Source: an uncultured Gammaproteobacteria bacterium
GTDB lineage: Bacteria; Patescibacteriota; Microgenomatia; UBA12405
Direction of reading: 5' to 3'
Assembly (NCBI GenBank): GCA_964448465.1
Contig: CAYUVY010000005.1
Span: forward strand, 2,105 to 46,639
Length of the DNA: 44,535 nucleotides
Position 1 is the stretch's first letter. Each line of letters opens with the position of its first letter. Shown here one piece after another: positions 1,255-32,531 of the stretch. Made by a program: the position numbers and the translations under genes. The notes under the pieces were generated by a model that was not told where the DNA came from, made no database searches, and saw only the letters and a program-made list of their open reading frames with translations.

Positions 1255-2171
1255 AACACTGGATCCTGCCTACAGAAAAAAATAATCATCACGCCAAGTT
1301 ACTAAAACCCTTTGGTCTCGTCCTTCTGCTTGTTTTGTATATGGCCAACCAGGTGGCCCTCAAAACCCTCTCTAAACTTGAGCCAGGAGTCTTGGGTTAT
1401 GCAAGTGAAATTACCGTCGACAAAGTCTTGGCCCAAACCAATAGGGAGCGCGAAAAAGCAGGACTTTCTGATTTAACTTATAACGGCAAACTTTCCCATT
1501 CGGCCTCAAGTAAGGGTACCAACATGTTTGCCGAAAATTATTGGGCCCACAATAGTCCCTCAGGTCGCTCGCCCTGGAGCTTTTTCAAAGATGCTGGATA
1601 TACCTATCAAGTAGCTGGTGAAAATTTAGCTAAAGATTTTTATGATACAGAAAGTCTCGTGTCCGCCTGGATGAATTCCCCTACACACAGGGCAAATATT
1701 CTTGATTCTCGCTATAAAGAAATAGGTATAGGTGTCGTCAATGGTACTTTAAATGGCTACAAAACTACTTTAGTAATACAGCACTTTGGCACCCCGCTAG
1801 CTGGTAAAATTGCTGACAAACCCAACCAACTGCCAGTTGCTGCTAAAACAGTACCAGCCCAAATAGATGAACCCGCCGTCCAAGCGCCGTTGGCTGAAGT
1901 TCCCAAGGATGTTGTCGTCCAAGTTCGCGGAGAGTCTGTTACGCCCACTATCCAACCAGTTAATCCACACACCATTAGCAAAATTGTCGGGAGCATCATC
2001 TTTATTTTATTGGTGGGAGTCATGTTTATCGATGGTTATGTAGTTTTACATCAACAACACCAGCGTCTAACCGGTTCTCGTCTAGCTCACATTTGTTTTC
2101 TTATCGTTATTTTTATTTTGTTGGTCTTAAGCCAACAAGGAGTCATTGGCCAATATGCAGCTGCTCTTTAA
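1251..2171 (+). CDS. CAP/SCP (PR-1-like) domain protein, membrane anchored
   Basis: GTG start overlaps the VanZ stop (GTGA, 1251-1254). It has an N-terminal TM segment and CAP-domain landmarks NREREKAGL, YWAHNSP, AGENLAK, WMNSPTHRANIL and EIGIGVV. A Pro/Ala-rich linker and two C-terminal TM segments follow. Confidence 0.7.
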   Translation: MKHWILPTEKNNHHAKLLKPFGLVLLLVLYMANQVALKTLSKLEPGVLGYASEITVDKVLAQTNREREKAGLSDLTYNGKLSHSASSKGTNMFAENYWAHNSPSGRSPWSFFKDAGYTYQVAGENLAKDFYDTESLVSAWMNSPTHRANILDSRYKEIGIGVVNGTLNGYKTTLVIQHFGTPLAGKIADKPNQLPVAAKTVPAQIDEPAVQAPLAEVPKDVVVQVRGESVTPTIQPVNPHTISKIVGSIIFILLVGVMFIDGYVVLHQQHQRLTGSRLAHICFLIVIFILLVLSQQGVIGQYAAAL

Positions 2172-2421
2172 ACGCCTCCATAGTTATCGATTGGAATATT
2201 CTCTAATTGGACTTATCTGTTTGGTATTTTTGATTGTTTTACTATTTGTACACAACCAAACTAACTTATTTATTACTGGCGTTTTAGCCTTGTGCGTTAG
2301 CTATTTAGCTTGGGGAATTTTTCACCATTCCCGCAAACAAGATTTACACCCAAGTATTATCTTGGAATATATTGTTTTTATTCTTTTTGCCCTCTCCATC
2401 CTATTTCTTTCCTCGTTTTAG
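2155..2421 (+). CDS. Small integral membrane protein (hypothetical)
   Basis: The ORF track gives 2146 (TTG). The ATG at 2155 is more likely. Three hydrophobic helices. The 3' end overlaps the trmD 3' end by 21 nt (convergent). Confidence 0.35.
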   Translation: MQLLFKRLHSYRLEYSLIGLICLVFLIVLLFVHNQTNLFITGVLALCVSYLAWGIFHHSRKQDLHPSIILEYIVFILFALSILFLSSF

Positions 2422-3084
2422 CCAATTTTTCTTCCATTCTTCAATTTTTTTATGATCCCCGGAAATTAATTCTTCTGGAACTTTCCAACCTTTATATTCT
2501 CGTGGTCTAGTGTACTGCGGGTATTCTATTTGTCTTTTACCCTCAATTTTGGAAAAACTTTCCTCTCCCGAGGATTCGTCCTTGCCCAGTACCCCTTTTT
2601 GTAAGCGAATTACACTATCCATAATTACCATCGCCGGTATTTCTCCTCCGGTTAAAACATAGTCGCCAATAGATATGCATTCATCAGCTAGGTTGTCTTC
2701 AATCCTTGCATCTAGGCCCTCGTAGTGGCCACAAATTAAGGTAATTTGTTCGTAATTAGCCAATCGTTCAGCGTCTGCCTGGGTGTATCGCTTACCACGT
2801 GCACTTAAGGCAATAACTCTAGACTTATTTTTAGCTATTTTTTTAGCTACTACCTCTTGCCTAATATATTCTAGTGCTCGGCTAATCACATCCACTTTCA
2901 TCACCATGCCCACCCCACCGCCAAAGGGCTTATCGTCCACCGTCCCATATTCATCCTCGGCCCACTGTCTCAGTTGGCGATATTTAATTTTTACCAATCC
3001 TTTGACCAAGGCTCGACTAACCATGCTCGAAGCAAAAGGGGATTCAAACATCTGGGGAAACAACGTAATCACATCAAATCTCAT
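2401..3084 (-). CDS. trmD: tRNA (guanine37-N1)-methyltransferase
   Basis: MRFDVITLFPQMFESPF..., DDKPFGGGVGMVMKVD, LICGHYEGLDARI and IGDYVLTGGEIPAMVIMDSVIRL are classic TrmD motifs in the correct order. 227 aa. Confidence 0.93.
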   Translation of the reverse strand: MRFDVITLFPQMFESPFASSMVSRALVKGLVKIKYRQLRQWAEDEYGTVDDKPFGGGVGMVMKVDVISRALEYIRQEVVAKKIAKNKSRVIALSARGKRYTQADAERLANYEQITLICGHYEGLDARIEDNLADECISIGDYVLTGGEIPAMVIMDSVIRLQKGVLGKDESSGEESFSKIEGKRQIEYPQYTRPREYKGWKVPEELISGDHKKIEEWKKNWLKRGKK

Positions 3085-3089
3085 CCCAA

Positions 3090-3095
3090 ATTATA
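3090..3095 (-). promoter_or_regulatory. -10 hexamer TATAAT, 5 nt upstream of the trmD ATG (leaderless-type arrangement)
   Basis: The minus strand reads TGCTATAATttgggATG. No Shine-Dalgarno sequence fits in the 5-nt gap. Confidence 0.4.
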
Positions 3096-3193
3096 GCATT
3101 TTGCTCAATTTTGTGGCTAATTTCAATAACTATTGAAAATTGAAAATTAGATTTTAAAAATTTTCTAGTTTAGCGTGATATCATAAACTATTC

Positions 3194-4429
3194 ATGACCG
3201 AAAAAAAGAAAATTGCGGTAGTGGTCATCCCTACCTACAACGAAGCCGACAATATTGGCAAAATGCTAGATTATCTAGCAACAAACACCTTTCCCAAGAT
3301 TAAAAATTGGCAAATGCACGCTCTTGTTGTGGATGGAAATTCTCCTGATGGTACGGCCAAAGTTGCTCAAAAATATGTGGACAAATATCCATCTGTCCAT
3401 CTTTTGGTCGAGACCAGCAAAGATGGCATTGGTGCAGCTTATTTAAAGGGTTTTCGACTTGCCAAAGAACAATTCAAAGCAGATGTGGTTTGTGAATTTG
3501 ATAGTGATTTTCAACATCCTCCAGAAGCCATCGAGCCACTATTGCAAAAAATAGAGCAAGGTTACGACTATGTCTGTGGTTCACGCAAAATCGCCGGTGG
3601 CTCTAACCCCAAGGGTTGGGGGTTTAAAAGACTATTTTTTAGTGAAGCTGGTGGTTTTACTGCACGGTTTATGATGTTTTTCCCTACCAAAAACTTTTTT
3701 AAAGTCACCGATCCTACTACTGGTCTAAAAGCCACCCGGGTCAACCCCTATATTGATGAAAAACTACTAGATTTTAAGCATCTTTATTCCCGAAGTTTCG
3801 GCTATAAATTACAACTACTTTTTGAAACAATTAAATCAGGTGCCAAATACACCGAAATTCCTTTACAATTTGGACTTCGCACCCAAGGAGAATCCAAGAT
3901 AGAACCCCAAACCGCCAAAGAAATTTTCAAGGTCGCCCTACGCCTCCGCTTAAACGACCCTGGGACCAAAAGCTTCCTTAAGTTTGGCACTGTAGGCACA
4001 ATTGGTTTTTTGGTTAATTCCCTTGCACTTGAGTTCTTTCGAAGTTTGCCTCTCTCTCAAACCTTAGCCGACTACATGCAACAACATCCGCAAATTCCTC
4101 TATATAATTTGTTTAATAATCCCAATTCTTGGGCCGGTGCCTTGGCTGCCGAAGTCTCTATAGTATCTAATTACTTGTTAAATAACTTTTGGACTTTCCG
4201 ACACCAAAAGCACAATAGTATTTTTAAATTTATCGGCAAGTTTTTTCAATTTAATTTAACCTCTATTGGCGCTATTGCTATTCAGTTTTTAGTAATTGGT
4301 TCTGCTACTCATCTACTCGGTGACACTATTCGCATACGCCAATTTGCCTTAATCTTTTCCATAGTCTTTCTCATACTTCCCTACAACTGGTTCATGTACA
4401 ACACTTTTATCTGGAAAAAAAAGAAATAG
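3194..4429 (+). CDS. GT2 polyprenol-phosphate glycosyltransferase (Dpm1-like) fused to a GtrA-like C-terminal membrane domain
   Basis: N-terminal part: VVIPTYNEADNI, VVDGNSPDGT and EFDSDFQHPP (GT-A DxD region). C-terminal part: FLKFGTVGTIGFLVNSL...VSNYLLNNFWTFRH (GtrA-like, 4 TM). An extended -10, TGaTATCAT (3176-3184), lies upstream. Confidence 0.8.
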   Translation: MTEKKKIAVVVIPTYNEADNIGKMLDYLATNTFPKIKNWQMHALVVDGNSPDGTAKVAQKYVDKYPSVHLLVETSKDGIGAAYLKGFRLAKEQFKADVVCEFDSDFQHPPEAIEPLLQKIEQGYDYVCGSRKIAGGSNPKGWGFKRLFFSEAGGFTARFMMFFPTKNFFKVTDPTTGLKATRVNPYIDEKLLDFKHLYSRSFGYKLQLLFETIKSGAKYTEIPLQFGLRTQGESKIEPQTAKEIFKVALRLRLNDPGTKSFLKFGTVGTIGFLVNSLALEFFRSLPLSQTLADYMQQHPQIPLYNLFNNPNSWAGALAAEVSIVSNYLLNNFWTFRHQKHNSIFKFIGKFFQFNLTSIGAIAIQFLVIGSATHLLGDTIRIRQFALIFSIVFLILPYNWFMYNTFIWKKKK

Positions 4430-4436
4430 TCTTCAA

Positions 4437-4814
4437 CTAAAATTTCAGCGCAATTGTCTTAGTTGTACTTACGCCCTTGGCATCTTTAAATCTCACTGTC
4501 ACAGTTCCCTTGGTTATATTTCGATGTGCGGTGCAAGCTTTTTTGGAACAAGTTCCCATAAAGAAGGTTCTAGTTGCCGAGGTAGTTTTTGGTTTGCGAA
4601 TTACCCCAGAAATTCCTTCTTCTTTCCCTCTACTTACATACACCACATCATAAGATACCGATTGCAATCCTCGCAGGCCTGACAATCTCAAAATGACATT
4701 CCTTTTGTTGGCCGTGACCACTGCACTAGCCCCAGGTGCCGCCCAAACTGGTTTGTTTAGTCCCAAACTAAGTAATAAGAAACTTAACACTAAAACCAGT
4801 TTGTTTATTTTCAT
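4437..4814 (-). CDS. Small secreted protein (hypothetical)
   Basis: Signal peptide MKINKLVLVLSFLLLSLGLNKPVWA/AP, then a beta-rich-looking body with a CSKKAC pair. It starts 18 nt downstream of the dsbA-like stop. Confidence 0.5.
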   Translation of the reverse strand: MKINKLVLVLSFLLLSLGLNKPVWAAPGASAVVTANKRNVILRLSGLRGLQSVSYDVVYVSRGKEEGISGVIRKPKTTSATRTFFMGTCSKKACTAHRNITKGTVTVRFKDAKGVSTTKTIALKF

Positions 4815-4832
4815 TTATTTTTCAATAAATAA

Positions 4833-5615
4833 CTATTTAAGAGCGTTTTCAATGTAAGTTTTAACTTGATCATAAGGTAAGGCACCAGGAATTAATTCTT
4901 TTCGTCCACTCTTGGAAATGACAACTGTTCCTGGAGTACCGTTTATTCCAGCAGCCGAACCTCCATTTTGTTGGGCAGTAATTGTGGCAGCCATTTCTCC
5001 ACTATCCACACAAGTCTTCATTTGTGCAGTATTTACTCCAAAAGTTCCAGCAACCTTAATAAGATTATCCACCGCTAAATATGTGTCATTACCATTTGAT
5101 GCTTTGGCGTAAACCTCATTTGAATATTTCCAAAACTTATCATTGCCTCCAAGCTTAGCTACGCATTCTGAGACCTCAGCTGCCTTTTGAGCATATGGGT
5201 GAAAGGGGAGCGGATATTGTCGCAAAACCCAAGCTACTTTAGGGCCATATTCTTTAACCACTTGTTCCATAGTTGGGTGAAATCTTTGACAAAAAGGACA
5301 TTGATAATCCGAATATTCCACCATTACTACTGGAGCGTCCAAACTACCTAGCACGTGATCGCTGTTGGTTACAGCCGGCATTTTACCCAAATCTGGGGTT
5401 GGCTCTGGTGCTTGTTGTGGTTGAGTACCCACAGCTGCTGTTGGTGCTCCCGTATTCGCCTTCTCTAAATTTTGCACTTTAAAAAATAAATATCCGCAAA
5501 AAAACGACAAGGCAATTAATGGTAAGGTCAACAAATTTACATTATTGCCACCTCCATACATTGGGGCTTGGTAAGAATTTTCAACAGGAGCTCTAGATAC
5601 TTTTTTAGAAGGCAT
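4833..5615 (-). CDS. DsbA-family thiol:disulfide oxidoreductase, membrane anchored
   Basis: N-terminal TM segment, a Pro/Ala/Gln linker, then a thioredoxin fold with YSDYQCPFCQRFHP (CxxC) and a DsbA-like helical insertion. Confidence 0.8.
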   Translation of the reverse strand: MPSKKVSRAPVENSYQAPMYGGGNNVNLLTLPLIALSFFCGYLFFKVQNLEKANTGAPTAAVGTQPQQAPEPTPDLGKMPAVTNSDHVLGSLDAPVVMVEYSDYQCPFCQRFHPTMEQVVKEYGPKVAWVLRQYPLPFHPYAQKAAEVSECVAKLGGNDKFWKYSNEVYAKASNGNDTYLAVDNLIKVAGTFGVNTAQMKTCVDSGEMAATITAQQNGGSAAGINGTPGTVVISKSGRKELIPGALPYDQVKTYIENALK

Positions 5616-5731
5616 TATATTTTAAGGTTAAATTACTAATAATTTGACTAATTAAAACTTTACCAGGCTTACAGTTCACTTACAACAACCAATATTTGAC
5701 AAGATAAAAAATACTTGCCAAACTAATATCT

Positions 5732-6205
5732 ATGTCTAAACAAAAAATTTCGCTAAGCATCGCAATTGTTCTCTTTTCAACCTTATTTTTTTCCTCAACT
5801 ATTCTAGCTATTGAAGATGGTACTACTTTGCCAAATAGCTATGTTGGTACCACCAAAACTATTGAAGATAACCATGATTATTTGCAAATTTATCGCCAGA
5901 TGAAGCAAAAACTTTTTGAAAAAGATTTAAAACAAAAAACAGAAGTAGTTGGCCAACAACGCAAATCCTGCACACAAAACATTCTTACTTATCAACAGTC
6001 TCGCCAGAGGCAACAAGTCGAACTTCGCAAGTCTTGCTATCCAGCAGAATCGGCTACTTCTTCAGCTCTTCGCAAACCCTTGCTCGATGCCTGCAAACAA
6101 AAAATGCAAGCCTTTGAGCTTGAAACTAAGGCCAAAATAACTCAGATGCGCTTATCATGCAAGCAAATAGAAAAGAAAGTTCTAGGCATTACTGACTCGA
6201 TGTAG
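5732..6205 (+). CDS. Secreted helical protein with four Cys (hypothetical)
   Basis: Signal peptide MSKQKISLSIAIVLFSTLFFSSTILA. A Q/K/R-rich body with 4 cysteines. Divergent from the dsbA-like gene. Confidence 0.5.
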   Translation: MSKQKISLSIAIVLFSTLFFSSTILAIEDGTTLPNSYVGTTKTIEDNHDYLQIYRQMKQKLFEKDLKQKTEVVGQQRKSCTQNILTYQQSRQRQQVELRKSCYPAESATSSALRKPLLDACKQKMQAFELETKAKITQMRLSCKQIEKKVLGITDSM

Positions 6206-7085: not shown

Positions 7086-8162
7086 ATGAATAACGCCTTG
7101 CTAAAACGGTTTATGGACATAGTTCAAATAGACAGTCCGTCAGGTGAAGAGCAAGCCATGGGAAGATATTTATCCAACTGGTTAACAGAAATGGGCTATA
7201 CCTATACCACTGACAAACTTGGATCTATCCTTACCACTAATTTTGAAAACCCAAAATTACTACTTTGTGCACACACAGACACAGTTGAGCCCGGAAGGGG
7301 AATAAAACCAATTTTGGAGAACAATTACATAAAAAGTGAGGGTAAAACAATTTTAGGTGCAGATAACAAGGCTTCGGTTTCCGCTATTATGACCGCCATC
7401 GAAGAATATAAAGAAAAGTATAAAACTTTGCCCAATCTTGAAATTTTATTCACCGTGAAGGAAGAAACAGGTGGTGGTGCAGAATTTTTCCCATTTAATC
7501 TTATAAAGTCTAAAAGAGGATTAATTTTTGACTACTGTCGACCACATGGAAAAATTATTATTTCTTCTCCTTTTATCTATAATTTTAAAATTAACTTTAA
7601 GGGCAAAGCCGCGCACTCCTCTCGGCCAGAAGATGGCAAGAACTCCTTATTGGCGGCAGTAAAATTTATCAGCGAAATCCCTATGGGTAAATTGGATAAT
7701 GGCGACACCACCATTAATGTCGGCCAAGTTAACTCTGGGACTGGCATCAATGTGATTCCCGAGAACACCACTGTTTGGGGCGAAGTCAGAAGTATCGATG
7801 AAAAATTATTTAAAAAATATTTAGCACAAATTGAAAACAAAGCCAAAGAAATAGCAAAAAATAGTGATATTACGCTTGAATACAAGTTGGATGGATATTG
7901 TCCTGGTTACAACTATTCCCCAGAAGATAAATATATCAAGGAAATAGTCTCAGTCTATAAAGCACTCGGAATCGAAGCTACTTACGACCGCAGCACAGGT
8001 ATCAGCGACGCCAACCCCCTCGTTGGTGCAGGAATAGAAACAGTTAATTTGTCTGATAGTGGTGAAAACCCCCACTCCACCGATGAATGTATTTCTATTG
8101 ATAACCTAAACAAACTTCAAGAAATAGTCCTGAAAATGATCGAAACTTTTGCTCAGAATTAA
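7086..8162 (+). CDS. M20-family metallopeptidase (peptidase T/tripeptidase-like)
   Basis: LLLCAHTDTVEP, GADNKASVSAIM, VKEETGGGA and a C-terminal ENPHSTDE. This is the order of the M20 metal ligands. Confidence 0.7.
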   Translation: MNNALLKRFMDIVQIDSPSGEEQAMGRYLSNWLTEMGYTYTTDKLGSILTTNFENPKLLLCAHTDTVEPGRGIKPILENNYIKSEGKTILGADNKASVSAIMTAIEEYKEKYKTLPNLEILFTVKEETGGGAEFFPFNLIKSKRGLIFDYCRPHGKIIISSPFIYNFKINFKGKAAHSSRPEDGKNSLLAAVKFISEIPMGKLDNGDTTINVGQVNSGTGINVIPENTTVWGEVRSIDEKLFKKYLAQIENKAKEIAKNSDITLEYKLDGYCPGYNYSPEDKYIKEIVSVYKALGIEATYDRSTGISDANPLVGAGIETVNLSDSGENPHSTDECISIDNLNKLQEIVLKMIETFAQN

Positions 8163-8180
8163 TACTTAATCTTGTGCTGA

Positions 8181-8516
8181 CTAGGGTCTAAACAGTATAC
8201 CATTGTCGTCAATTTCAATGATCTGATCATCGCCAATACTATCAGTGTATCTACGATAAGTAAGTCCATTGACATCTACAAATCTCCTGTGTGCACCTGG
8301 GAACTCCTCGCGAACGATCTTGTCACCTGCTTTTAATGCTTCTGTAGCTAGGCCTTTACCTCTAAACTTACCATTAATGTCAACTCTGGCTCCTAATACT
8401 CCTGGTTCGTCACCTTGTTCAAAAAAAATAGCTTCCCCAGCCCTTTTCCCATCAACTTTAACTTCTACGGAAAACTGCTTATCTTTAATTTTACGTTTAA
8501 AAAGATCTATCGCCAT
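8181..8516 (-). CDS. Short GNAT-like protein (hypothetical)
   Basis: 111 aa. ARVDINGKFRGKGLATEAL resembles GNAT motif A (R/Q-x-x-G-x-G/A). It is too short for a full GNAT fold. Confidence 0.35.
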   Translation of the reverse strand: MAIDLFKRKIKDKQFSVEVKVDGKRAGEAIFFEQGDEPGVLGARVDINGKFRGKGLATEALKAGDKIVREEFPGAHRRFVDVNGLTYRRYTDSIGDDQIIEIDDNGILFRP

Positions 8517-8629: not shown

Positions 8630-9238
8630 TTACAACAAAAAGCTCTCACCGTGGCCAGGCAGGACCTCTGTACCTTCGGGTAGTTTATGTAATAACCCCA
8701 GACTCGCCACTAGCTCCTTACGATCACTATAATCATGTTCTGTGGAACCTACTCCATCCGCAAACAGTGTATCTCCTGTAAATAACAATAAGTCTTCCTC
8801 GCTGTAAAAACTCAGACTACCGGGGGTATGGCCAGGTGTAGGTATGATTTTTAGTCTAGAATTTCCCAATTTTATTTCTCCTACCTCCAACAGATCTACT
8901 TGAATTTTCAATTTTTCCGCCAAATCCATATTTCTTTTGCTAAAAAATCTAGCTGTATGGTTTATTCGATTAATCAAAAAATAGTCCTTACTATTGGCAT
9001 AAAATGGTACTCTATACATTAATTGTAGGTCATACGCAGCTAGCAGATGGTCATAATGACCGTGTGTAGCCACAATTCCCTTAATTATCAAGTTGCGTAC
9101 TCGAACCTCCTCCGAAATGGCCACCGCATCATCTGCCGGGTCCAATATAATGCATTTTTTGCTTTCCTCTTCCCACAATAAATAGCAGTTCGTGGAAAGT
9201 TCCCCCAAACATAGACTAGTGTATTTAAGCATTGCCAT
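8630..9238 (-). CDS. MBL-fold metallo-hydrolase (glyoxalase II-like)
   Basis: ILDPADD, VATHGHYDHL (HxHxDH), TPGHTPGS, FTGDTLF and LPGHG. Confidence 0.8.
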   Translation of the reverse strand: MAMLKYTSLCLGELSTNCYLLWEEESKKCIILDPADDAVAISEEVRVRNLIIKGIVATHGHYDHLLAAYDLQLMYRVPFYANSKDYFLINRINHTARFFSKRNMDLAEKLKIQVDLLEVGEIKLGNSRLKIIPTPGHTPGSLSFYSEEDLLLFTGDTLFADGVGSTEHDYSDRKELVASLGLLHKLPEGTEVLPGHGESFLL

Positions 9239-9252
9239 AGTATAATCAATAC

Positions 9253-9873
9253 ATGACCAAGACCCAAGTCCTAACTATCAGTACACTTATACTATTCTCT
9301 CTAACTCTCTCTGCTTGTGGTAAGGCCACACCTAAGGCCAAATTTAGCTCTGACTCCGACATTCAAGCTTTTCCGACTTTAAGCGATACCGCTGCTAAAG
9401 TAAAAATTAACTCCACTAAACAATTTAAATTAAACCAGGCTGTGCCTGTAGTTTATAAAACTACCGAAGGACAGGGAACCGTGGAATACAAAGCCAAGAA
9501 AATGACCGAAGTAGCCAGTATTGATGGCCGTCTCCCAGAAGATGGTAAAAAACTAGTTTTATTGGAATTTTCCTACAAGGGTAGTGCCAAAAACAAAGGA
9601 CAGCCGAGTACTGTCAACCAGATTGGTGACACACCTGCTCCTCAATTTGTTTTAGTTGATAAAAATAAAAACGAGTCTTTTGTGGAAGAAACCGTCTATT
9701 CCGATGCTTATGCTGCTTCAAAAAAACTTTTTGAATTATATAAATTAACCTTAGACAACGAAAAAGTTGTTGACACCGCCCTGGTTTTTCAAGTCGACAA
9801 AGCCCTACCGCTAAACTTAGCTGTTAGATTTACCAATTTAGAGGGTAAAACTGAATTTTACGATGTCCAATAA
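9253..9873 (+). CDS. Lipoprotein (hypothetical)
   Basis: Signal peptide with lipobox LTLSAC. A beta-rich body. TATAAT at 9241-9246 lies 6 nt before the ATG. Confidence 0.6.
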   Translation: MTKTQVLTISTLILFSLTLSACGKATPKAKFSSDSDIQAFPTLSDTAAKVKINSTKQFKLNQAVPVVYKTTEGQGTVEYKAKKMTEVASIDGRLPEDGKKLVLLEFSYKGSAKNKGQPSTVNQIGDTPAPQFVLVDKNKNESFVEETVYSDAYAASKKLFELYKLTLDNEKVVDTALVFQVDKALPLNLAVRFTNLEGKTEFYDVQ

Positions 9874-10402
9874 ACGTTTATACGTAGGCGGTATTCCCTT
9901 TACCACTACCGAAGGTGAACTTTTAAAGCTTTTTGTTGGCGATGGTAAAGTCATTGATGTCGTTTTAATGCTCGACGATCATCGCCGCAGTAAGGGCCAA
10001 GGTTTTGTGGAATTTGAAAGTGAAGATGATGCGATTCGGGCCAAAGAAAAATATCATAATTCCGAATTCATGGGTCGTCGTATGATTGTCGATTATGCCA
10101 AGGCCGATCCACTTCAAACACCCGAAGGTAAGGCAAAATTTGAAGATGCTCTCGTTCGTCGTGGACCACGATTTGAAAAATTTAATCGCCGTATTGAGCG
10201 CAAACAAGGTCGCAAATTTGGACCAGAAGTCAAAAAAAGTGCTCCAGTTGGTAGTTTTAGTACTTTTAACCACTCCCCACACCCAGATCAAGATAGTAAT
10301 GCCTACAAGCCTGCTTACCAAAGTCCACAGCGTCCTGGCTATTCTAGCTATAAAAAGCCCAAAAACTACAAGCCTTCCAAATTTAAGTCTCGCTATCAAT
10401 AA
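9863..10402 (+). CDS. RRM-domain RNA-binding protein with a disordered basic/Tyr-rich tail
   Basis: RNP-2 LYVGGI and RNP-1 KGQGFVEF are correctly spaced. The C-terminal ~90 aa is rich in K/R/P/S/Y. The start overlaps the upstream gene by 11 nt. Confidence 0.8.
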   Translation: MSNKRLYVGGIPFTTTEGELLKLFVGDGKVIDVVLMLDDHRRSKGQGFVEFESEDDAIRAKEKYHNSEFMGRRMIVDYAKADPLQTPEGKAKFEDALVRRGPRFEKFNRRIERKQGRKFGPEVKKSAPVGSFSTFNHSPHPDQDSNAYKPAYQSPQRPGYSSYKKPKNYKPSKFKSRYQ

Positions 10403-26819: not shown

Positions 26820-28532
26820 CTACAACTTTTCAATTGCAGTTATTCCCAATAACTGCAATAAAATAGCCAAGACTTCTTTTGTTTTTGTTGTCAGATAAAT
26901 TCTCCGTGCTGATTTTGGATTATTCAAAATTGGCAAACTACCATACATTTGGCTAAAACTTCTAGCCACTTCCAGGGCATAAGTTGCCAACACACTGGGC
27001 GCATATCTCTCGGCTGCTTCTAAAATTTTTGATTCCAAACATAACAATTTGTTAACCAACTCCATTTCCACTGGTTTTTGGTCTTTCCAGTCCAACCCAA
27101 CTTCCTCTTTATTTTCTTTGGCTTTTTCCATTAAACTTACACATCTGGCATAAGCATATTGTAAGTAAGGACCAGAGTCTCCTTCCAAACTCATAATTCT
27201 CTCCCAGTCAAAAATAATATCCCTCTTTGGCTCTGAAGATAAATCTGTAAACTTAATTGCCCCAATTGCCAATTGGTCTATGACTTCTTGCTTATCTTCA
27301 CTTTTGCTTCTACTAATTTCTGCCGATTCCACAACTTTTTTTGCTTCTAGTCGAGCCCTATCAATAATTTCAGAGAGATGGATAGTTTCACCTTTTCTTG
27401 TAGAAAATTTCCTATCTTTCCATCGAATCATTCCATGAGCCACATGAACCATTCCGTATTTTGGCATGTACCCCAATATTCTGGATGTTTCGAATACTTG
27501 TTTTAAGTGAAGTGTTTGGTCCGCTCCCACTTCGTAAATAACCAAATCAGGGTTCCATTTTCTTTTGCGATACAAAGCTGTTGCCAGATCGCGGGTAAAA
27601 TAAATAGTAGTTCCATTACTCTTTATTAATATGGCGGGGGGCATGCTGGGAAATTCAATTATCCAGGCTCCACCCTCGCCAATTTTAGCCAACTTTTTCT
27701 CTTTACAAACGTCAATCACTTCCTGCATCTTATCTTCATAGAAAGATTCGCCATTGACCACATCTATTTTGACTTTTAATAGGTCATACATTTTATTGTG
27801 TTCCTTCATGGAAACATCTATACAAAGTTGCCAAATTCTTCTTGCTTCTGCATCTCCCTTCTCCAACTTGGCAAACCATTCTCTTCCTTCTTCCACTAAT
27901 TTTTCGTCAACTTCTGCTTTTTTATGAAATTCTACATATAACCTTTCCAACTCTTCAATTGTCAAATCCTCAACTGGCTTAGTGTTAAATTTTTTAATTG
28001 CCACAATTAGCTTTCCAAACTGTGTGCCCCAATCTCCAATATGGTTATCTCCAATAGTTTTCCAACCTAAAATTTTATATATATTATAAATTGCTTGACC
28101 AATATTAGTAGAACGCAAGTGGCCAATCCCAAAAGGTTTGGCAATATTTGGCGCTGAATAATCAATGACCATGGTTTTGCCTTTACCATTGGCCGCAATT
28201 TCTTTTAAAAAAGCCGAAGTTGCCAATTTGTCTAACTGTGCAAGTTTGAATTTTTGTTTTAAATAAATATTTATAAAACCAGGTCCAGCTACTTCCACCT
28301 TTTCAATAATTTCGTCTACTAGTTCACCTTTAATTTCCTCCGCCAAGTCTTTGGGATTTTTCTTTAAACTTTTTGCCAAAAGCATGGCAATGTTCGTACT
28401 ATAATCACCAAATTGATATTCTTTGTTGGTTTCTACTTTGACTTGGTCTGTGGGCATTTTCAGTTTCACCAAAGCAACAGAAACTGCTTTTTCCAAGCTG
28501 GCAATTAGATTAGTTTTATAGATTAGTTCCAT
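26820..28532 (-). CDS. argS: Arginine--tRNA ligase
   Basis: Class I landmarks PFGIGHLRS (HIGH-like) and KFSTRKG (KMSKS-like), plus an ArgRS N-terminal add-on domain and a DALR-type C-terminal domain. 570 aa. Confidence 0.92.
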   Translation of the reverse strand: MELIYKTNLIASLEKAVSVALVKLKMPTDQVKVETNKEYQFGDYSTNIAMLLAKSLKKNPKDLAEEIKGELVDEIIEKVEVAGPGFINIYLKQKFKLAQLDKLATSAFLKEIAANGKGKTMVIDYSAPNIAKPFGIGHLRSTNIGQAIYNIYKILGWKTIGDNHIGDWGTQFGKLIVAIKKFNTKPVEDLTIEELERLYVEFHKKAEVDEKLVEEGREWFAKLEKGDAEARRIWQLCIDVSMKEHNKMYDLLKVKIDVVNGESFYEDKMQEVIDVCKEKKLAKIGEGGAWIIEFPSMPPAILIKSNGTTIYFTRDLATALYRKRKWNPDLVIYEVGADQTLHLKQVFETSRILGYMPKYGMVHVAHGMIRWKDRKFSTRKGETIHLSEIIDRARLEAKKVVESAEISRSKSEDKQEVIDQLAIGAIKFTDLSSEPKRDIIFDWERIMSLEGDSGPYLQYAYARCVSLMEKAKENKEEVGLDWKDQKPVEMELVNKLLCLESKILEAAERYAPSVLATYALEVARSFSQMYGSLPILNNPKSARRIYLTTKTKEVLAILLQLLGITAIEKL

Positions 28533-28864
28533 TAGAATATTTTAGCACCAGCTGGCATATCCGTCTCGGGGATCATAATTGTAATTTTCCCCTCTACTTC
28601 TGCCGCAAAAATCATGGCCTCCGATAATTCGCCCATAATTTTTCTAGGTTCAATATTTACCACAAATGCCGTCTTTTTGTTTATTAAATCTTCAGGCGCG
28701 TAATATTTGGCAATTCCGGAAAATATAGTTTTGACACCCAACTCTTCTCCAAAATCTACCTTAAATTTCAATAATTTTTCTGACCCTTCAACCTTACCCG
28801 CTTCCACAATCTGACCCAACCTAAACTCCACCTTGGCAAAATCTTCGTATTGAATTGTGTTCAT
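28532..28864 (-). CDS. tRNA-binding domain protein (CsaA/EMAP-like OB fold)
   Basis: FAKVEFRLGQIVEAGKVEGSEKLLKFKVDFGEE...VVNIEPRKIMGELSEAMIFAAE. The ATG at 28864 sits 1 nt after the upstream stop. The ORF track's 28918 start would overlap the upstream gene. Its stop overlaps the argS ATG. Confidence 0.75.
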   Translation of the reverse strand: MNTIQYEDFAKVEFRLGQIVEAGKVEGSEKLLKFKVDFGEELGVKTIFSGIAKYYAPEDLINKKTAFVVNIEPRKIMGELSEAMIFAAEVEGKITIMIPETDMPAGAKIF

Positions 28865-28865
28865 A

Positions 28866-29285
28866 TTAAGCAGGCAACCTTCTTGGTAAAATCGGTCCTG
28901 TATAGCCTCCCTCCTCAAGTGCTTCCATTACATTTAAATCGCGCAACATACGTCTCAAGTATGGCTGAGCTTTGTGCATCTCGGGTTGAACTAAAGACAA
29001 CCTGTCAACCCAATTCAGATATGTACTATAAGGACGAATTAAGTCAGGTAAAACCAGTTCAGCAACTACATTCCATTTTTCACCACACACATCTTCATCA
29101 CTACTTAGTACCTCGGGCAGTAACTCAGCAAGCATAACTCTCAAAGGTTGATCAAATTGGTCCGCAAAAGGGAACCCACGGTTTACAGCATAGAGCCCCC
29201 ATGCTTCTCTTCGAACATCAAAATTGTCAGGATCTTCATTGGTAATAATATCAACAAACCTCTGTTGTTCTTTTTTATTTATCAT
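28866..29285 (-). CDS. Hypothetical acidic protein (orphan, 139 aa), first gene of the csaA-like/argS operon
   Basis: Protein-like composition, tight coupling to the downstream genes, and its own TATAAT 5 nt upstream. I recognise no motif. Confidence 0.5.
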   Translation of the reverse strand: MINKKEQQRFVDIITNEDPDNFDVRREAWGLYAVNRGFPFADQFDQPLRVMLAELLPEVLSSDEDVCGEKWNVVAELVLPDLIRPYSTYLNWVDRLSLVQPEMHKAQPYLRRMLRDLNVMEALEEGGYTGPILPRRLPA

Positions 29286-29380: not shown

Positions 29381-30232
29381 GTGTTGACACAGAAATTCCT
29401 ACTGCCAGATGACCCCTATTGCTACTCTGTGATATTATTTCAAAATATGATTATAGATATCGGTTCAGGTCATAAGCCAGATAAGAAAGCAAATATTTTA
29501 CTTGAGTACACAGAGGCTGGAAATGAGCATCGTTGGAATCAGGAATTGAAAATAGATCGTCCTATTGTTTTTTATAATACAAGCAAAATACCATTTAAGG
29601 ATAAAGTCTTTAGTAAAACAATTTGCAAACATGTACTCGAGCACGTAGATGACCCTAAATTATTTTTAAGCGAACTAGAACGAATATCTTTGGGAGGGTA
29701 CATAGAGACCCCTTCAGAAATAGCTGAACTAGTATTTACCCCATATGACCAACACAAATGGGTAATTAATCTTGACTCAGATAAACTATTGATCAAAAAG
29801 AAGACCAACGATAATATCTCTAAGTTAAATAGACTTTTTGATTTTTTGTGTGATAACGAACAAGGTTTTGAAAAAAACTTTTACTGGAAGAGACGGGCCT
29901 TATTCTTTATTGAATACTATTGGAACGACTCTATTCATTTTAAAATAATTTCCAGTTCCAAAAACACCGAACTTGATTTATGGTCAGATAGAGTTTTGAA
30001 AAAGCTTTGTGTATTAAACAAGGTAAATGCTCGACGAAATACCTCTTTTCGTAATATTAAATACCGAACAAATGATATATTCTTGTTTTTAGAGGAGAAT
30101 ATCGAATCTCCTTGTTGCCATGTTAATGTGTCAAATATCAACAACTCCTTTGTATGCAAATCGTGTAACATGTCATTTCCTATACGAGGCAACAAAATAG
30201 ATCTATCTCTTCCCTTAGTAAAACATAAGTAA
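29381..30232 (+). CDS. Class I SAM-dependent methyltransferase with a C-terminal Trm112-like zinc-ribbon
   Basis: Motif I IIDIGSGHKP, then IPFKDKVFSKTICKHVLEHVDDPKLFLSELERISLGGYIETP (Methyltransf_11/23-like). The C-terminus has CCHVNVS...FVCKSCNMSFPIRGNKIDL (CxxC pair). The start is uncertain: GTG 29381, or TTG 29384, which lies 5 nt after TATAAA. Confidence 0.65.
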   Translation: MLTQKFLLPDDPYCYSVILFQNMIIDIGSGHKPDKKANILLEYTEAGNEHRWNQELKIDRPIVFYNTSKIPFKDKVFSKTICKHVLEHVDDPKLFLSELERISLGGYIETPSEIAELVFTPYDQHKWVINLDSDKLLIKKKTNDNISKLNRLFDFLCDNEQGFEKNFYWKRRALFFIEYYWNDSIHFKIISSSKNTELDLWSDRVLKKLCVLNKVNARRNTSFRNIKYRTNDIFLFLEENIESPCCHVNVSNINNSFVCKSCNMSFPIRGNKIDLSLPLVKHK

Positions 30233-30325: not shown

Positions 30326-32287
30326 TTAAGCTGGTCCAAACCTAAAACTTTGGCTCGGTTGTGTACCTTTGTTGTTTTCTAGAAATTTTTTCCTGCCAAA
30401 AAAATTACGACTTATCAATGACTGCATGACTGGTTCTATATATTTACATTCGATATCGAAAGGTATTGTTTTAAGAATATTTAAAATATCATTTTCTACA
30501 AGCAAATTTTTATGGAACTTTTCACGTATCTCTTGACCAATATCATTTAAAGATAGATCAGATAAATAAGTCTCTATTAATCGCCTTGAGTTTGTCTGAA
30601 ATAAGCTTAACCATTCTCCAGGTATATTTTCTGGATGTACTATCGCCAACTTGGCATGAGAGAGAGCATGTGCCCACAACACAGAATCATAAACTTCGGG
30701 CTTGTTCTGAGTACTAAACAATTTTATTGTCGGAAGTACACCTAGAGAATTCTCAAGTTCTTCAAATGTCATAATTTCTGCTGGATAGATAAAATCAGGA
30801 ATTTTTCCAAAAAATTCTGATATTGAAAAAACCCAATTTATATATTCATCAATCTGCTCCCGTTTTCTTTCTTTAATACAGATGAAAGTATCAATATCAC
30901 TATAATTTTTACTCCTTCCACGGGCAAGGCTTCCAAAGATAAAGGCAAACCTTAGGTTTGAATTGAATATTCTTGTGACAGTCTCGATAAAGCTATTTGA
31001 TACTAAATCCTGAATGGTTTTGGCCAAGGACTTATTTTTAGATATTAAGCTTGAGTAGCTTTCTGCAGGACGCAATAAGTAATTATAAATTTCTCTAGGC
31101 ACAAGAACAGGCTTACAAATTGTAATACCAGACTTGCAGACGAGTGATGCGCCGTAACTGTAACCACCGTACTCCTCAGTGCCACGCTCTACATCATGTA
31201 TTATTAAATCCTTTAAAACTATAGTGCCCAAAACTTTACTTGTCACAAAGTTGCTAGCACCAAAAACAGAAACATACATTTGCTCTTGTGTGTAGCGGTT
31301 TTCTGGATCATGAAAATATTCAGATAATTCATCATCTGAATCGTATTCGGATACAAGAACTACAGGGCTATACAGCTCCTTATAGTTACGAAAATTTTTG
31401 ATATGAGAGTGGCAAACTGTTGGGAATACAATATTTTTTTTAAAATCCAGTGTACCCCCAAATACTATCTGACCTTTACTATTTTGGACACGGTCTAACA
31501 TCTCGGCCGTTGAGAGTAACGAAGAAGACTCTGCCAAAGGCCCTATCAAGGATCCATCTTTGTAAGAAGGTCCAACCTTGACATTGTATAAACAATTTTT
31601 TAACTCATCAAGAAAAGGACCTATTATATCCTTGTGGACAAGCACCATGTCCGCACCAGCACAGTCTTGTCCGTTATTAAAAGTTTTTAAAAAAGCGACC
31701 TTTTCAGCTGCAAGTGAAATATTTGCGCTTGGCGTTACAACAACAGGGTTGTGGCCAACACCGTTATAGAGGAAAAGTGTCTTTTTGGAAAGCTGGTCTT
31801 TAATTTTAAGAAAGTTATTATATCTACCAGTAAACACAACTACATCACTCGTTTTACATTCGTCTTGGACAAAGGCTTCTCTGTGTATATCTTTAACCAG
31901 TGTATTCGGATATAACTTATCTAAAGAAATAGCTTTTGCCAACTTATTAAGGGTCGTATGTAGTAATTCTGGTGCTCGCACAACAACATACTCGGACTGA
32001 TATGAAGGTATTAGAGCAAACAAAAACAAGGAATAAAAGGGCAGATTCAAAGGTAGAAATGTTGCAACCTTAGAAACTTTTTCGTGTACGAAGTATGTTT
32101 TGTTCTCGTGTAGTGAGTATAGTAGATCAGTTACCCTACTAATTTCATCCTCTGCAACAACCAGACTTTCGATCTCTGTCAGAATTTCAATGAGAACATT
32201 CCGCTGTTTTGATATAGAATCGGCGACGATTTTTGCGTGATTGATTACATAGAGCTGGCGAGATTCATCTTCTTTGGACTTATTCAT
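30326..32287 (-). CDS. Fusion protein: aldehyde-dehydrogenase-like domain plus a Pol-beta-superfamily nucleotidyltransferase domain
   Basis: ALDH-like landmarks in order: FLPLNLPF, VVVFTGRYNNF, LYNGVGHNPVVV (in place of ELGGK), FNNGQDCAGADMVLVH, KELYSPVVLV and EEYGGYSYGAS. Then the NTase core FIFGSLARGRSKNYSDIDTFICI (GSxxRG..DxD) and a ~170-aa helical tail. It is a single open frame of 653 codons. Confidence 0.6.
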   Translation of the reverse strand: MNKSKEDESRQLYVINHAKIVADSISKQRNVLIEILTEIESLVVAEDEISRVTDLLYSLHENKTYFVHEKVSKVATFLPLNLPFYSLFLFALIPSYQSEYVVVRAPELLHTTLNKLAKAISLDKLYPNTLVKDIHREAFVQDECKTSDVVVFTGRYNNFLKIKDQLSKKTLFLYNGVGHNPVVVTPSANISLAAEKVAFLKTFNNGQDCAGADMVLVHKDIIGPFLDELKNCLYNVKVGPSYKDGSLIGPLAESSSLLSTAEMLDRVQNSKGQIVFGGTLDFKKNIVFPTVCHSHIKNFRNYKELYSPVVLVSEYDSDDELSEYFHDPENRYTQEQMYVSVFGASNFVTSKVLGTIVLKDLIIHDVERGTEEYGGYSYGASLVCKSGITICKPVLVPREIYNYLLRPAESYSSLISKNKSLAKTIQDLVSNSFIETVTRIFNSNLRFAFIFGSLARGRSKNYSDIDTFICIKERKREQIDEYINWVFSISEFFGKIPDFIYPAEIMTFEELENSLGVLPTIKLFSTQNKPEVYDSVLWAHALSHAKLAIVHPENIPGEWLSLFQTNSRRLIETYLSDLSLNDIGQEIREKFHKNLLVENDILNILKTIPFDIECKYIEPVMQSLISRNFFGRKKFLENNKGTQPSQSFRFGPA

Positions 32288-32459
32288 ACAACATTTTCAA
32301 GAGAAACTATTATTGATAACTGTTTATTTAATCTATTAGCACTGCTCATAATTAAGTGTGCAAAATTAGGTGCCAATACGACAATATAAAACATAAATTT
32401 TACACCACAATTATACTTAAATTAGGATTTATTGCAAAACAAAGTGACAATCCCCTTTG

Positions 32460-32531
32460 TGACGCTACGGGGAATCGAACCCCGATTAGCAGGATGAGAA
32501 CCTGCTGTCCTAACCGTTAGACGATAGCGCC
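32460..32531 (-). tRNA. tRNA-Glu (anticodon CUC)
   Basis: The reverse complement folds by hand: GGCGCTA TC GTCT AACGGTTA GGAC A GCAGG TTCTCAT CCTGC TAAT CGGGG TTCGATT CCCCG TAGCGTC A. 72 nt. CCA is not encoded. Confidence 0.85.

Follow-up and report, generated by a model that had tools for sequence, protein, structure and literature searches.

The 44,535-nucleotide stretch analysed here (the window; assembly GCA_964448465.1, contig CAYUVY010000005.1, positions 2,105 to 46,639 of the forward strand; GTDB lineage Patescibacteriota, Microgenomatia, UBA12405) carries on its reverse strand an uninterrupted open reading frame (ORF; 30326-32287) for a protein of 653 aa, in which an aldehyde dehydrogenase (ALDH)-like module is followed by a linker, a minimal Pol-beta nucleotidyltransferase (NTase) and a helical tail. 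The genes flanking it encode a methyltransferase and a membrane protein, and 1.8 kb downstream, on the same strand, lies a complete gene for arginyl-tRNA synthetase (ArgRS; 26820-28532; PF03485, PF00750 and PF05746). The analysis showed that the ORF encodes a genuine bifunctional protein belonging to a large uncharacterised clade of the ALDH superfamily. An earlier interpretation made from the letters alone (the sequence-only reading) had recognised both superfamilies, and the Pfam matches agreed with it, all three lying above their cut-offs: PF00171 (Aldedh) at residues 34-322 (E 2.5e-24; 86.1 bits, cut-off 23) and, as overlapping models at residues 437-510, PF18765 (Polbeta; 32.1 bits, cut-off 26.9) and PF01909 (NTP_transf_2; 31.3 bits, cut-off 21). 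A search covering 5.8 billion proteins returned about 60 full-length homologues of 650-680 aa with the same architecture and 39-76% identity, mostly from Patescibacteria assemblies of independent projects. The sequence-only reading had worried that the fusion was made during assembly; these homologues, together with the reverse-order fusions described below, exclude an assembly or frameshift artefact. When only the ALDH-like module served as the profile, an exhaustive search gave 434 representative clusters (50% identity) at E<=1e-30.

The ALDH-like module (residues 1-410; 31058-32287; this and the other segments of the gene are on the reverse strand) is, at about 400 aa, shorter than canonical ALDHs. 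An AlphaFold2 model of the full protein, for which the input was 61 homologues, was confident throughout (pLDDT 92.4, pTM 0.92), and in Foldseek searches its first ~420 residues superposed on ALDH structures with E values of about 2e-19 and TM scores of 0.6-0.7 per target. The profile match, the fold and the presence of equivalents of both the catalytic Cys302 and the oxyanion-hole Asn169 place the module in the ALDH superfamily. None of the subfamily cut-offs of the NCBIfam ALDH equivalogs was reached (top score 63 bits, with 615 needed); the closest sequence matches were to ALDH7, aminobutyraldehyde dehydrogenase and piperideine-6-carboxylate dehydrogenase, which are of the omega-amino-aldehyde or semialdehyde type.

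Motifs were placed by residue-level alignment to solved ALDHs (3iwk and 4pxn), and conservation was determined from 68 family members of all architecture classes aligned to the family hidden Markov model. Every ALDH motif listed in the sequence-only reading was recovered in the alignment to solved ALDHs. FLPLNLPF (32036-32059) aligns with PwNyPF, N81 being the equivalent of Asn169; FTGRYNNF (31811-31834) aligns with FTGSsatG and keeps F-T-G; the G206-Q-D208-C209 nucleophile loop (31661-31672) aligns with GQxC, with C209 equivalent to Cys302 and an Asp at position 301; and KELYSPV (31361-31381) aligns with EEvFGPV, placing E304 and Y306 at Glu399 and Phe401 on the nicotinamide-ribose side. In place of ELGGKSP the protein has the loop Y174-N-G-V-G-H-N-P (31745-31768). 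Since L-Y-N-G-V-G-H-N-P aligns with L-E-L-G-G-K-S-P, Tyr174 occupies the position of the general base Glu268, as expected from the earlier suggestion that this Glu had been lost while the Cys nucleophile was kept.

Across the family, N81, F-T-G, G-Q-D-C (including D208 and C209), E304, E367 and Y-G-G were invariant in 68 of 68 members, as was the N-G-x-G-x-N-P loop (N175, G176, G178, N180 and P181). The Glu268 position was never Glu, being taken by Y, F, H, L, A, S, G, V or I; position 306 was Y or F, and the Lys192 equivalent was almost always Arg. Among the residues that bind the dinucleotide in classical ALDHs (Lys192, Gly225/229, G245-S-T-x-x-G250 and Glu399), the F-T-G and Glu399 equivalents are retained. 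The glycine motif of the dinucleotide fold is degraded on its adenosine side, with Lys or Arg replacing Ser246 and Phe or Ala replacing Gly250, and the GxGxxxG region is lost in the window protein. Invariance of the active-site pattern in members down to about 30% identity points to selection on a modified active site, not to decay or to retention of a fold.

The window protein thus cannot be counted among the classical hydrolytic, NAD(P)+-dependent ALDHs, as it does not have the general-base Glu268 within ELGGK. In the databases its homologues are named only 'aldehyde dehydrogenase family protein' or 'predicted nucleotidyltransferase', and the first of these labels misleads, since a hydrolytic ALDH mechanism is not open to these proteins. 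With the hydrolytic Glu absent, a thioester on the Cys would be hydrolysed inefficiently, so that the acyl group would be passed to another nucleophile or the reaction would run in reverse, as an acyl reductase. A second feature of the active site concerns the substrate. D208, at the Asp301 position, aligns with Arg301 of ALDH7 (4pxn), a residue that binds the substrate carboxylate, and an acidic residue in its place suggests that the substrate of the window protein is cationic.

The NTase core (residues 437-510; 30758-30979) contains the motif G452-S453 ... D464-x-D466 (30890-30934) and the third acidic residues D498 and E504 (30776-30799). Fused and stand-alone NTases share all six residues (G452, S453, D464, D466, D498 as the third Asp, and E504) without variation, so that the core seen by the sequence-only reading is indeed intact. 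The profile matches, the hG[GS] and [DE]h[DE] motifs and the third carboxylate identify it as a Pol-beta NTase, and invariance of the catalytic residues in both fused and free forms argues for an active transferase. In a profile search against the PDB the best match was ANT(3'')/AAD(9) at 1.4e-4, followed by DrrA, KNTase and MntA. The C-terminal 238 residues, modelled separately (pLDDT 84), gave weak Foldseek matches to 2rff, MntA, LinB and ANT(4'), of which a single one had E < 1e-3, with TM scores of 0.3-0.5. The remainder of the protein (residues 511-653; 30329-30757) is a family-specific tail predicted to be helical, with no confident structural match in Foldseek; it is shorter or absent in the stand-alone NTases (173-240 aa), which are strongly basic (net charge +12 to +23). 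For the ALDH-like module the median pI is 5.7, on the acidic side.

The sequence-only reading had likened this layout to kanamycin- and lincosamide-type nucleotidyltransferases (KNTase and Lnu). The helical tail stood up, but the resemblance proved weak and generic, at the level of the NTase core of MNT and ANT enzymes. MntA-HepT and the ANT, KNTase and Lnu enzymes share with the window protein the minimal Pol-beta core (GS, DxD and a third carboxylate) and give the best structural and profile matches, yet these are weak (E 1e-4 to 1e-2, TM 0.3-0.5), and although ANT enzymes also have a helical C-terminal domain, the window tail is not recognisably KNTase_C-like. Membership of KNTase/Lnu was not supported, as the PDB profile matches (E 4e-3 to 0.5) covered only the NTase core and Foldseek gave E 4e-3 to 1e-2 with TM 0.3-0.4 and a root-mean-square deviation of ~16 A over the full length. 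With the NCBIfam ANT models, a stand-alone family NTase scored 15-16 bits against cut-offs of 340-350.

Pairing of the two modules was examined in 58 loci from species-representative genomes together with loci from contig look-ups (L numbers). It occurs in four configurations, as fusions in both orders and with a separate NTase gene adjacent to the ALDH-like gene, either upstream (13 loci) or downstream (6 loci). The reverse NTase-ALDH fusions, of about 547 aa, come from Woesearchaeota (L027), Nanohaloarchaea (L035) and Paceibacterota (L057), and ankyrin repeats are added in Babeliaceae (L020) and P0078. The family is found mainly among organisms living on or inside other cells, including Patescibacteria, DPANN archaea, Wolbachia and other Anaplasmataceae, Babeliaceae, Holosporales, Bdellovibrio-like organisms and Micavibrio. 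Members were also seen in three fungal records (P0071, P0085 and P0088; Pseudocercospora, Pyrenula and Neophaeococcomyces), where horizontal transfer or contamination is possible.

The NTase is not the sole partner. The best 150 representatives comprised 55 stand-alone ALDH-like proteins, 36 fused to the NTase and 18 fused in either order to class-I lysyl-tRNA synthetase (LysRS), with none fused to both; this mutual exclusion is consistent with interchangeable adenylate-forming partners. P0114 is fused to a complete class-I LysRS (TIGR00467, 382 bits, cut-off 148) and P0246 to a class-II LysRS-like enzyme (PRK00484 at E 2.9e-61, compared with 6.7e-9 for aspartyl-tRNA synthetase, AspRS). The LysRS fusions sit among housekeeping genes, and histidine kinases flank them. 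Rarer fusion partners were an aminotransferase, an AstE/AspA-type deacylase, GNAT, PLD, an AAA_33 kinase-like domain, a methyltransferase and a canonical ALDH; the last is represented by P0254 (883 aa), which carries a full canonical ALDH (771 bits) and for which contamination or horizontal transfer is again possible. At L072, genes for S-adenosylmethionine decarboxylase (1454-1840) and a deoxyhypusine-synthase-family protein (2019-3056) lie 4-5 kb upstream of an ALDH-like/LysRS fusion, a lysine/polyamine link that is possibly coincidental.

The proximity of ArgRS, which like the LysRS fusions, the phosphodiesterase partner described below and the size of the family had been absent from the sequence-only reading, turned out to be a recurrent feature. 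ArgRS lay within 5 kb (<=5 kb) in 25 of 36 NTase-type loci (11/17 fused, 14/19 split) and was usually directly adjacent, the gap being -13 to +3 nucleotides in DPANN and some Patescibacteria loci. Other neighbours varied from locus to locus, leaving ArgRS as the dominant conserved one. The taxa concerned are classes of Patescibacteria, two DPANN archaea, Micavibrio, Magnetobacterium, a Bathymodiolus symbiont, metagenome-assembled genomes (MAGs) labelled Bdellovibrionales, and Acidimicrobiales. The linked ArgRS proteins keep HIGH-like and MS[ST]R motifs but fall into several divergent lineages; they are 34-38% identical to E. coli ArgS, proteobacterial and other types alike, and blastn gave no match. 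Adjacency to ArgRS and fusion to LysRS point to an undescribed chemistry on activated basic amino acids.

Some details of the synthetases themselves were recorded. In the window ArgRS and in many ArgRS proteins of the candidate phyla radiation (CPR) and DPANN (L013, L027, L035, L057 and others), Gly takes the place of the first His of the HIGH signature, which reads G-I-G-H or G-V-G-H, and the divergent ArgRS beside the closest homologues reads H-V-G-N (L002) or S-V-G-H (L011). In the closest relative, L001, the fusion protein is 76% and the methyltransferase 87% identical to those of the window. Its ArgRS gene (8672-10351) lies between these two genes, at a place where the window has no gene, and the encoded protein is only ~25% identical to the window ArgRS; the low identity and the different placement imply two ArgRS lineages and an event of gain, loss or replacement. 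In the window, ArgRS is preceded on the same strand by a gene for a 128-aa tRNA_bind protein of the Trbp111/CsaA type (28532-28918; PF01588, E 4.7e-24) whose stop codon overlaps the ArgRS start, which suggests a trans-acting tRNA-binding cofactor co-expressed with ArgRS. The commonest tRNA near the loci was tRNA-Arg, which made up five of the ten non-redundant tRNAs.

A variant arrangement was found in 11 Saccharibacteria loci, where the ALDH-like module stands alone and is followed by a convergent gene for a 350-480-aa protein derived from ArgRS (hhalign probability 98%, E 3.9e-14). This derivative has kept the ArgRS N-terminal domain (E 1e-9 to 1e-14), but its catalytic core is barely detectable, and neither a recognisable HIGH segment nor a detectable DALR domain was present, whereas real ArgRS controls gave 1e-23 to 1e-62. 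This is the first indication of an ArgRS-derived pseudo-synthetase partner. The conserved upstream neighbour in Saccharibacteria (373-627 aa) had no Pfam, NCBIfam or PDB match. Besides this protein, the stand-alone loci (L037, L041, L044, L046, L054 and others) share a seven-transmembrane (7TM) histidine kinase and one to three single-domain response regulators; examples of the shared genes are 1755-3959, 3996-5879 and 8972-9793 of L041.

Two further enzymes recur near the family. A metallo-beta-lactamase-fold phosphodiesterase of the PhnP/RNase-Z type is adjacent in six loci (L009, L014, L015, L017, L018 and L022) and fused in three further cases (L048, L053 and P0176). The loci concerned are mostly NTase loci without ArgRS, and only five NTase-type loci had neither ArgRS nor the phosphodiesterase, four of them from intracellular organisms (Wolbachia, Mesenet, an Anaplasmataceae MAG and Babeliaceae). 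The second enzyme is an S-adenosylmethionine (SAM)-dependent class-I methyltransferase, represented in the window by the convergent gene at 29381-30232 on the forward strand (PF08241, E 2.7e-5). The sequence-only reading had proposed to look for its co-occurrence, and orthologues 51-87% identical do adjoin the fusion gene or the NTase/ALDH pair in close relatives (L001 and L003) and in a Gracilibacteria locus (L039). An unrelated class-I methyltransferase takes the same role in six other loci; methyltransferases of the two types were found at 10 loci in all. The two types could not be treated as one family, since no similarity between them was detectable; no PDB relatives were found for the window type, which is an optional partner. 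In Magnetobacterium casense (L031) the second type is split into overlapping ORFs (7729-8154 and 8106-8399, forward strand) and may be a frameshift or pseudogene.

Overall, the family appears as a conserved module of two to four genes that is tied to ArgRS and repeatedly fused to LysRS of both classes. Since host-dependent genomes retain few enzymes, a module conserved in them probably has an important task involving arginine and lysine or their tRNAs. A literature search gave nothing on this architecture, in keeping with the sequence-only reading, which had known of no characterised protein of the kind, and nothing on ArgRS paralogues; a review of aminoacyl-tRNA synthetase paralogues does not mention ArgRS (PMC9437257). 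The same review describes LysX (LysRS-MprF) and ErdS (AspRS-DUF2156), in which a synthetase is fused to the enzyme that consumes its aminoacyl-tRNA (PMC9437257). Window-family members fused to a complete class-I LysRS or a class-II LysRS-like enzyme resemble these proteins, but the fused module has an ALDH fold and is not a GNAT-like aminoacyl transferase, and the window protein itself is fused to an NTase and not to a synthetase. The fusion protein is a combination of known superfamilies, with a function that is possibly new, and the module gives experiments a way into new chemistry of thioesters, aldehydes or nucleotidyl groups where translation meets metabolism.

Tentatively, and at clearly less than even likelihood, we favour the idea that the protein is a non-hydrolytic acyl-enzyme catalyst, most likely working in the reductive direction on an activated basic aminoacyl or acyl group. 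In such a scheme, a basic amino acid, or a compound closely derived from one, would first have its carboxyl activated, either as an acyl-adenylate made by the NTase or as the aminoacyl-AMP or aminoacyl-tRNA made by ArgRS or LysRS. Cys209 would capture the activated group as a thioester, which without the hydrolytic Glu would not be lost to water, while Asp208 would hold the ammonium or guanidinium group of the substrate. NAD(P)H would then reduce the thioester to an amino aldehyde. Having the NTase fused or close by would let a labile mixed anhydride be channelled, in the manner of ProB-ProA/P5CS and LuxE-LuxC, and the overall logic would also be that of glutamyl-tRNA reductase.

The reductive direction is favoured because of a likeness to ProA, the gamma-glutamyl-phosphate reductase, which uses a thioester in reducing an activated carboxyl and whose activating partner, the glutamate 5-kinase ProB, is encoded beside it or fused to it (ProB-ProA/P5CS). 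ProA is itself a Cys enzyme of the ALDH superfamily, of similar size (417 aa), without a hydrolytic Glu and with a one-residue-longer Gly loop in the same place, E. coli ProA reading ITGGIGVCH where the window protein has YNGVGHNP. The two differ in that the activator of ProA is an amino-acid kinase, where here it would be a Pol-beta NTase, and in that the window family, unlike ProA, has an Asp beside the Cys and linkage to ArgRS and LysRS. Membership of ProA was not supported, hhalign giving E 0.002 and a probability of 14% over a segment of only 84 columns, and no amino-acid kinase (ProB) was seen in the examined neighbourhoods; the likeness is mechanistic. The direction is also favoured by weak matches to LuxC in relatives, by the interchangeable adenylate-forming partners and by the fusion and adjacency of a channelling type. 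In LuxC-LuxE, an ALDH-like acyl reductase with an acyl-protein synthetase, and in carboxylic acid reductases, adenylate formation is followed by reduction of a Cys-thioester to an aldehyde. PF05893 (LuxC) matched 9 of 47 relatives weakly, at 18-24 bits against a cut-off of 21 (24.1 for P0190), while the window protein itself had no PF05893 match at E<=1. The partner here differs from the ANL/LuxE-type adenylating enzyme, and the substrate is probably cationic and not fatty. Finally, the fusions to aminotransferase, AstE/AspA-type deacylase, GNAT and AAA_33 echo pathways in which a carboxyl is activated, reduced, transaminated and deprotected.

Several points weigh against this proposal. Pol-beta/MNT-type NTases are known to nucleotidylate hydroxyls and not carboxylates. 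If ArgRS were the activator the role of the NTase would be left unexplained, and if the NTase were the activator the linkage to ArgRS would be only indirect. Binding of NAD(P) is uncertain, given the degraded glycine motifs on the adenosine side and the missing GxGxxxG region, and the overall similarity to ProA is, as noted, marginal. Simple reduction would explain neither the PhnP/RNase-Z-type phosphodiesterase nor the SAM methyltransferases, and neither argininal nor lysinal has a known physiological role in these organisms.

An alternative, improbable but to be taken seriously, is that the NTase has a regulatory function. The ALDH-like module would work together with ArgRS or LysRS, the NTase would adenylylate Tyr, Ser or Thr residues on the module or on ArgRS, and the PhnP-like phosphodiesterase would remove the AMP. 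Precedents for such AMPylation are MntA, which modifies HepT, and GlnE, which modifies glutamine synthetase. The closest relatives of the NTase (MNT/MntA, DrrA and ANT) all transfer AMP to hydroxyls, the phosphodiesterase recurs as a neighbour or fusion partner, and the module offers several invariant Tyr residues, including Y85, Y338 and Y373. The stand-alone state of 55 of the top 150 representatives indicates that the NTase is dispensable for the core activity, and basic NTases would suit complex formation with an acidic module. For a reversible switch, however, it would be unusual to be permanently fused to its target, in either order, through an interface modelled confidently as rigid (pTM 0.92), and NTase and phosphodiesterase are found together in some loci only.

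Three other explanations are each rather unlikely. The first, a doubtful extension of the proposed thioester chemistry, is that the family are ALDH-fold reductases of aminoacyl-tRNA (or aminoacyl-adenylate), an independently evolved counterpart of glutamyl-tRNA reductase (GluTR), which would receive Arg or Lys groups from ArgRS or LysRS on Cys209 and release argininal or lysinal, with the NTase, phosphodiesterase and methyltransferase further processing the product or the tRNA. In glutamyl-tRNA reductase (HemA) a Cys attacks the aminoacyl-tRNA and NADPH reduces it to an alpha-amino aldehyde, which then goes to an aminotransferase-fold enzyme (GSA aminomutase). The window family resembles this pathway from glutamyl-tRNA synthetase through HemA in its linkage or fusion to aminoacyl-tRNA synthetases and in some aminotransferase fusions, but the HemA fold is unrelated to the ALDH-like module and the pathway has no counterpart of the NTase. 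If true, it would add a tRNA-dependent pathway not known before, found chiefly in CPR bacteria, DPANN archaea, endosymbionts and predatory bacteria.

The second, a serious rival in spite of a similarly small chance, is that tRNA-Arg or tRNA-Lys is itself the target of the module and its partners, namely the NTase, the PhnP/RNase-Z-like phosphodiesterase, a SAM methyltransferase and occasionally an AAA_33 kinase-like domain. They would heal or remodel the 3' end or process the aminoacyl ester, with recognition provided by ArgRS, the paralogue of its N-terminal domain or LysRS. The ArgRS N-terminal domain contacts the tRNA D-loop, and it is the only part kept by the degenerate paralogue; genomic coupling to ArgRS, fusion to LysRS of either class and the prevalence of tRNA-Arg among nearby tRNAs fit as well, except that the tRNA-Arg genes may be there only as companions of ArgRS. 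The phosphodiesterase has RNase Z as a relative, the set of partners resembles RNA-repair kits that heal, seal and methylate, and the positive charge of the stand-alone NTases is compatible with such a role. The acidic ALDH-like module, however, gives no support from charge for direct RNA binding, the NTase does not have the body with which CCA-adding enzymes bind RNA, enzymes of this sort have no known RNA-borne aldehyde substrate, and the methyltransferases are optional and of two unrelated types.

The third is that the enzyme runs in the oxidative direction, NAD(P)+ oxidising an amino aldehyde to the thioester and the acyl group passing to an acceptor other than water (CoA, an amine, phosphate or AMP, or a tRNA hydroxyl) that the NTase or synthetase would supply or process. 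An active site that has lost the hydrolytic Glu but kept Cys, Asn and Glu399 would suit this direction equally well; the proteins matched best in sequence are omega-amino-aldehyde and semialdehyde dehydrogenases, and among the fusion partners are aminotransferases, which can generate aldehydes from amines, and the canonical ALDH of P0254. A precedent within the superfamily exists in the CoA-acylating ALDHs (PduP/EutE and methylmalonate-semialdehyde dehydrogenase), whose thioester is resolved by a nucleophile other than water. Their signature loops differ from those of the window protein, however, neither CoA-binding features nor a CoA-related context was found, matches to specific ALDH subfamilies fall far below curated cut-offs (36 bits, against 600, for the acylating sulfoacetaldehyde dehydrogenase model), and the reduced genomes show no evident source of amino aldehydes. 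We regard this explanation, too, as doubtful, though as a serious rival.

Like an artefactual fusion, the two remaining ideas are unlikely. The sequence-only reading had considered a degenerate ALDH fold serving only as a ligand-binding module for the NTase, and a pseudoenzyme with such a scaffolding role might be argued from the missing general base, the degraded Rossmann glycine motif and the appending of the module to a housekeeping-looking LysRS, but invariance of Cys209, Asp208, Asn81, Glu304, F-T-G and N-G-x-G-x-N-P in all 68 members, down to ~30% identity, makes this very improbable. Least probable of all is an MNT-type toxin-antitoxin or anti-phage defence module in which the ALDH-like domain replaces HEPN: the NTase gave generic PADLOC matches to the MNT-type candidate models PDC-S09 and PDC-M05A, but the ALDH-like part matched no PADLOC defence model, no defence islands were seen, and the genes lie among housekeeping genes next to ArgRS in tiny genomes of several phyla. 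A classical MNT-HEPN pair was separately rejected, as the sequence-only reading had anticipated, because HEPN was found neither in the protein nor in its flanking genes nor in the neighbour census, and a stand-alone family NTase scored 15 bits with MntA_antitoxin (cut-off 60).

Upstream of the fusion gene, a promoter-like site on the same strand (TTTGCA-17-TATAAT; 32410-32438) agrees with the consensus at 10 of 12 positions, a consensus match only; it lies between the gene and a tRNA-Glu(CUC) gene on that strand (32460-32531), ~170 nucleotides upstream, and an Rfam search at the locus found neither a leader nor a riboswitch. Among NTase-type loci, neighbours of low frequency, but of suggestive theme, were NUDIX hydrolases (4), GNAT acetyltransferases (4), arginase-family proteins (2) and cyanophycinase-type S51 peptidases (2). 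In seven loci (3107-6589 of L007 and 1876-5484 of L021, both on the reverse strand, and L013, L026, L038, L051 and L057) the ALDH-like gene neighbours an isoleucyl-tRNA synthetase of 1150-1200 aa in which a histidine-phosphatase domain (PF00300, His_Phos_1) interrupts the class-I catalytic domain between its halves.

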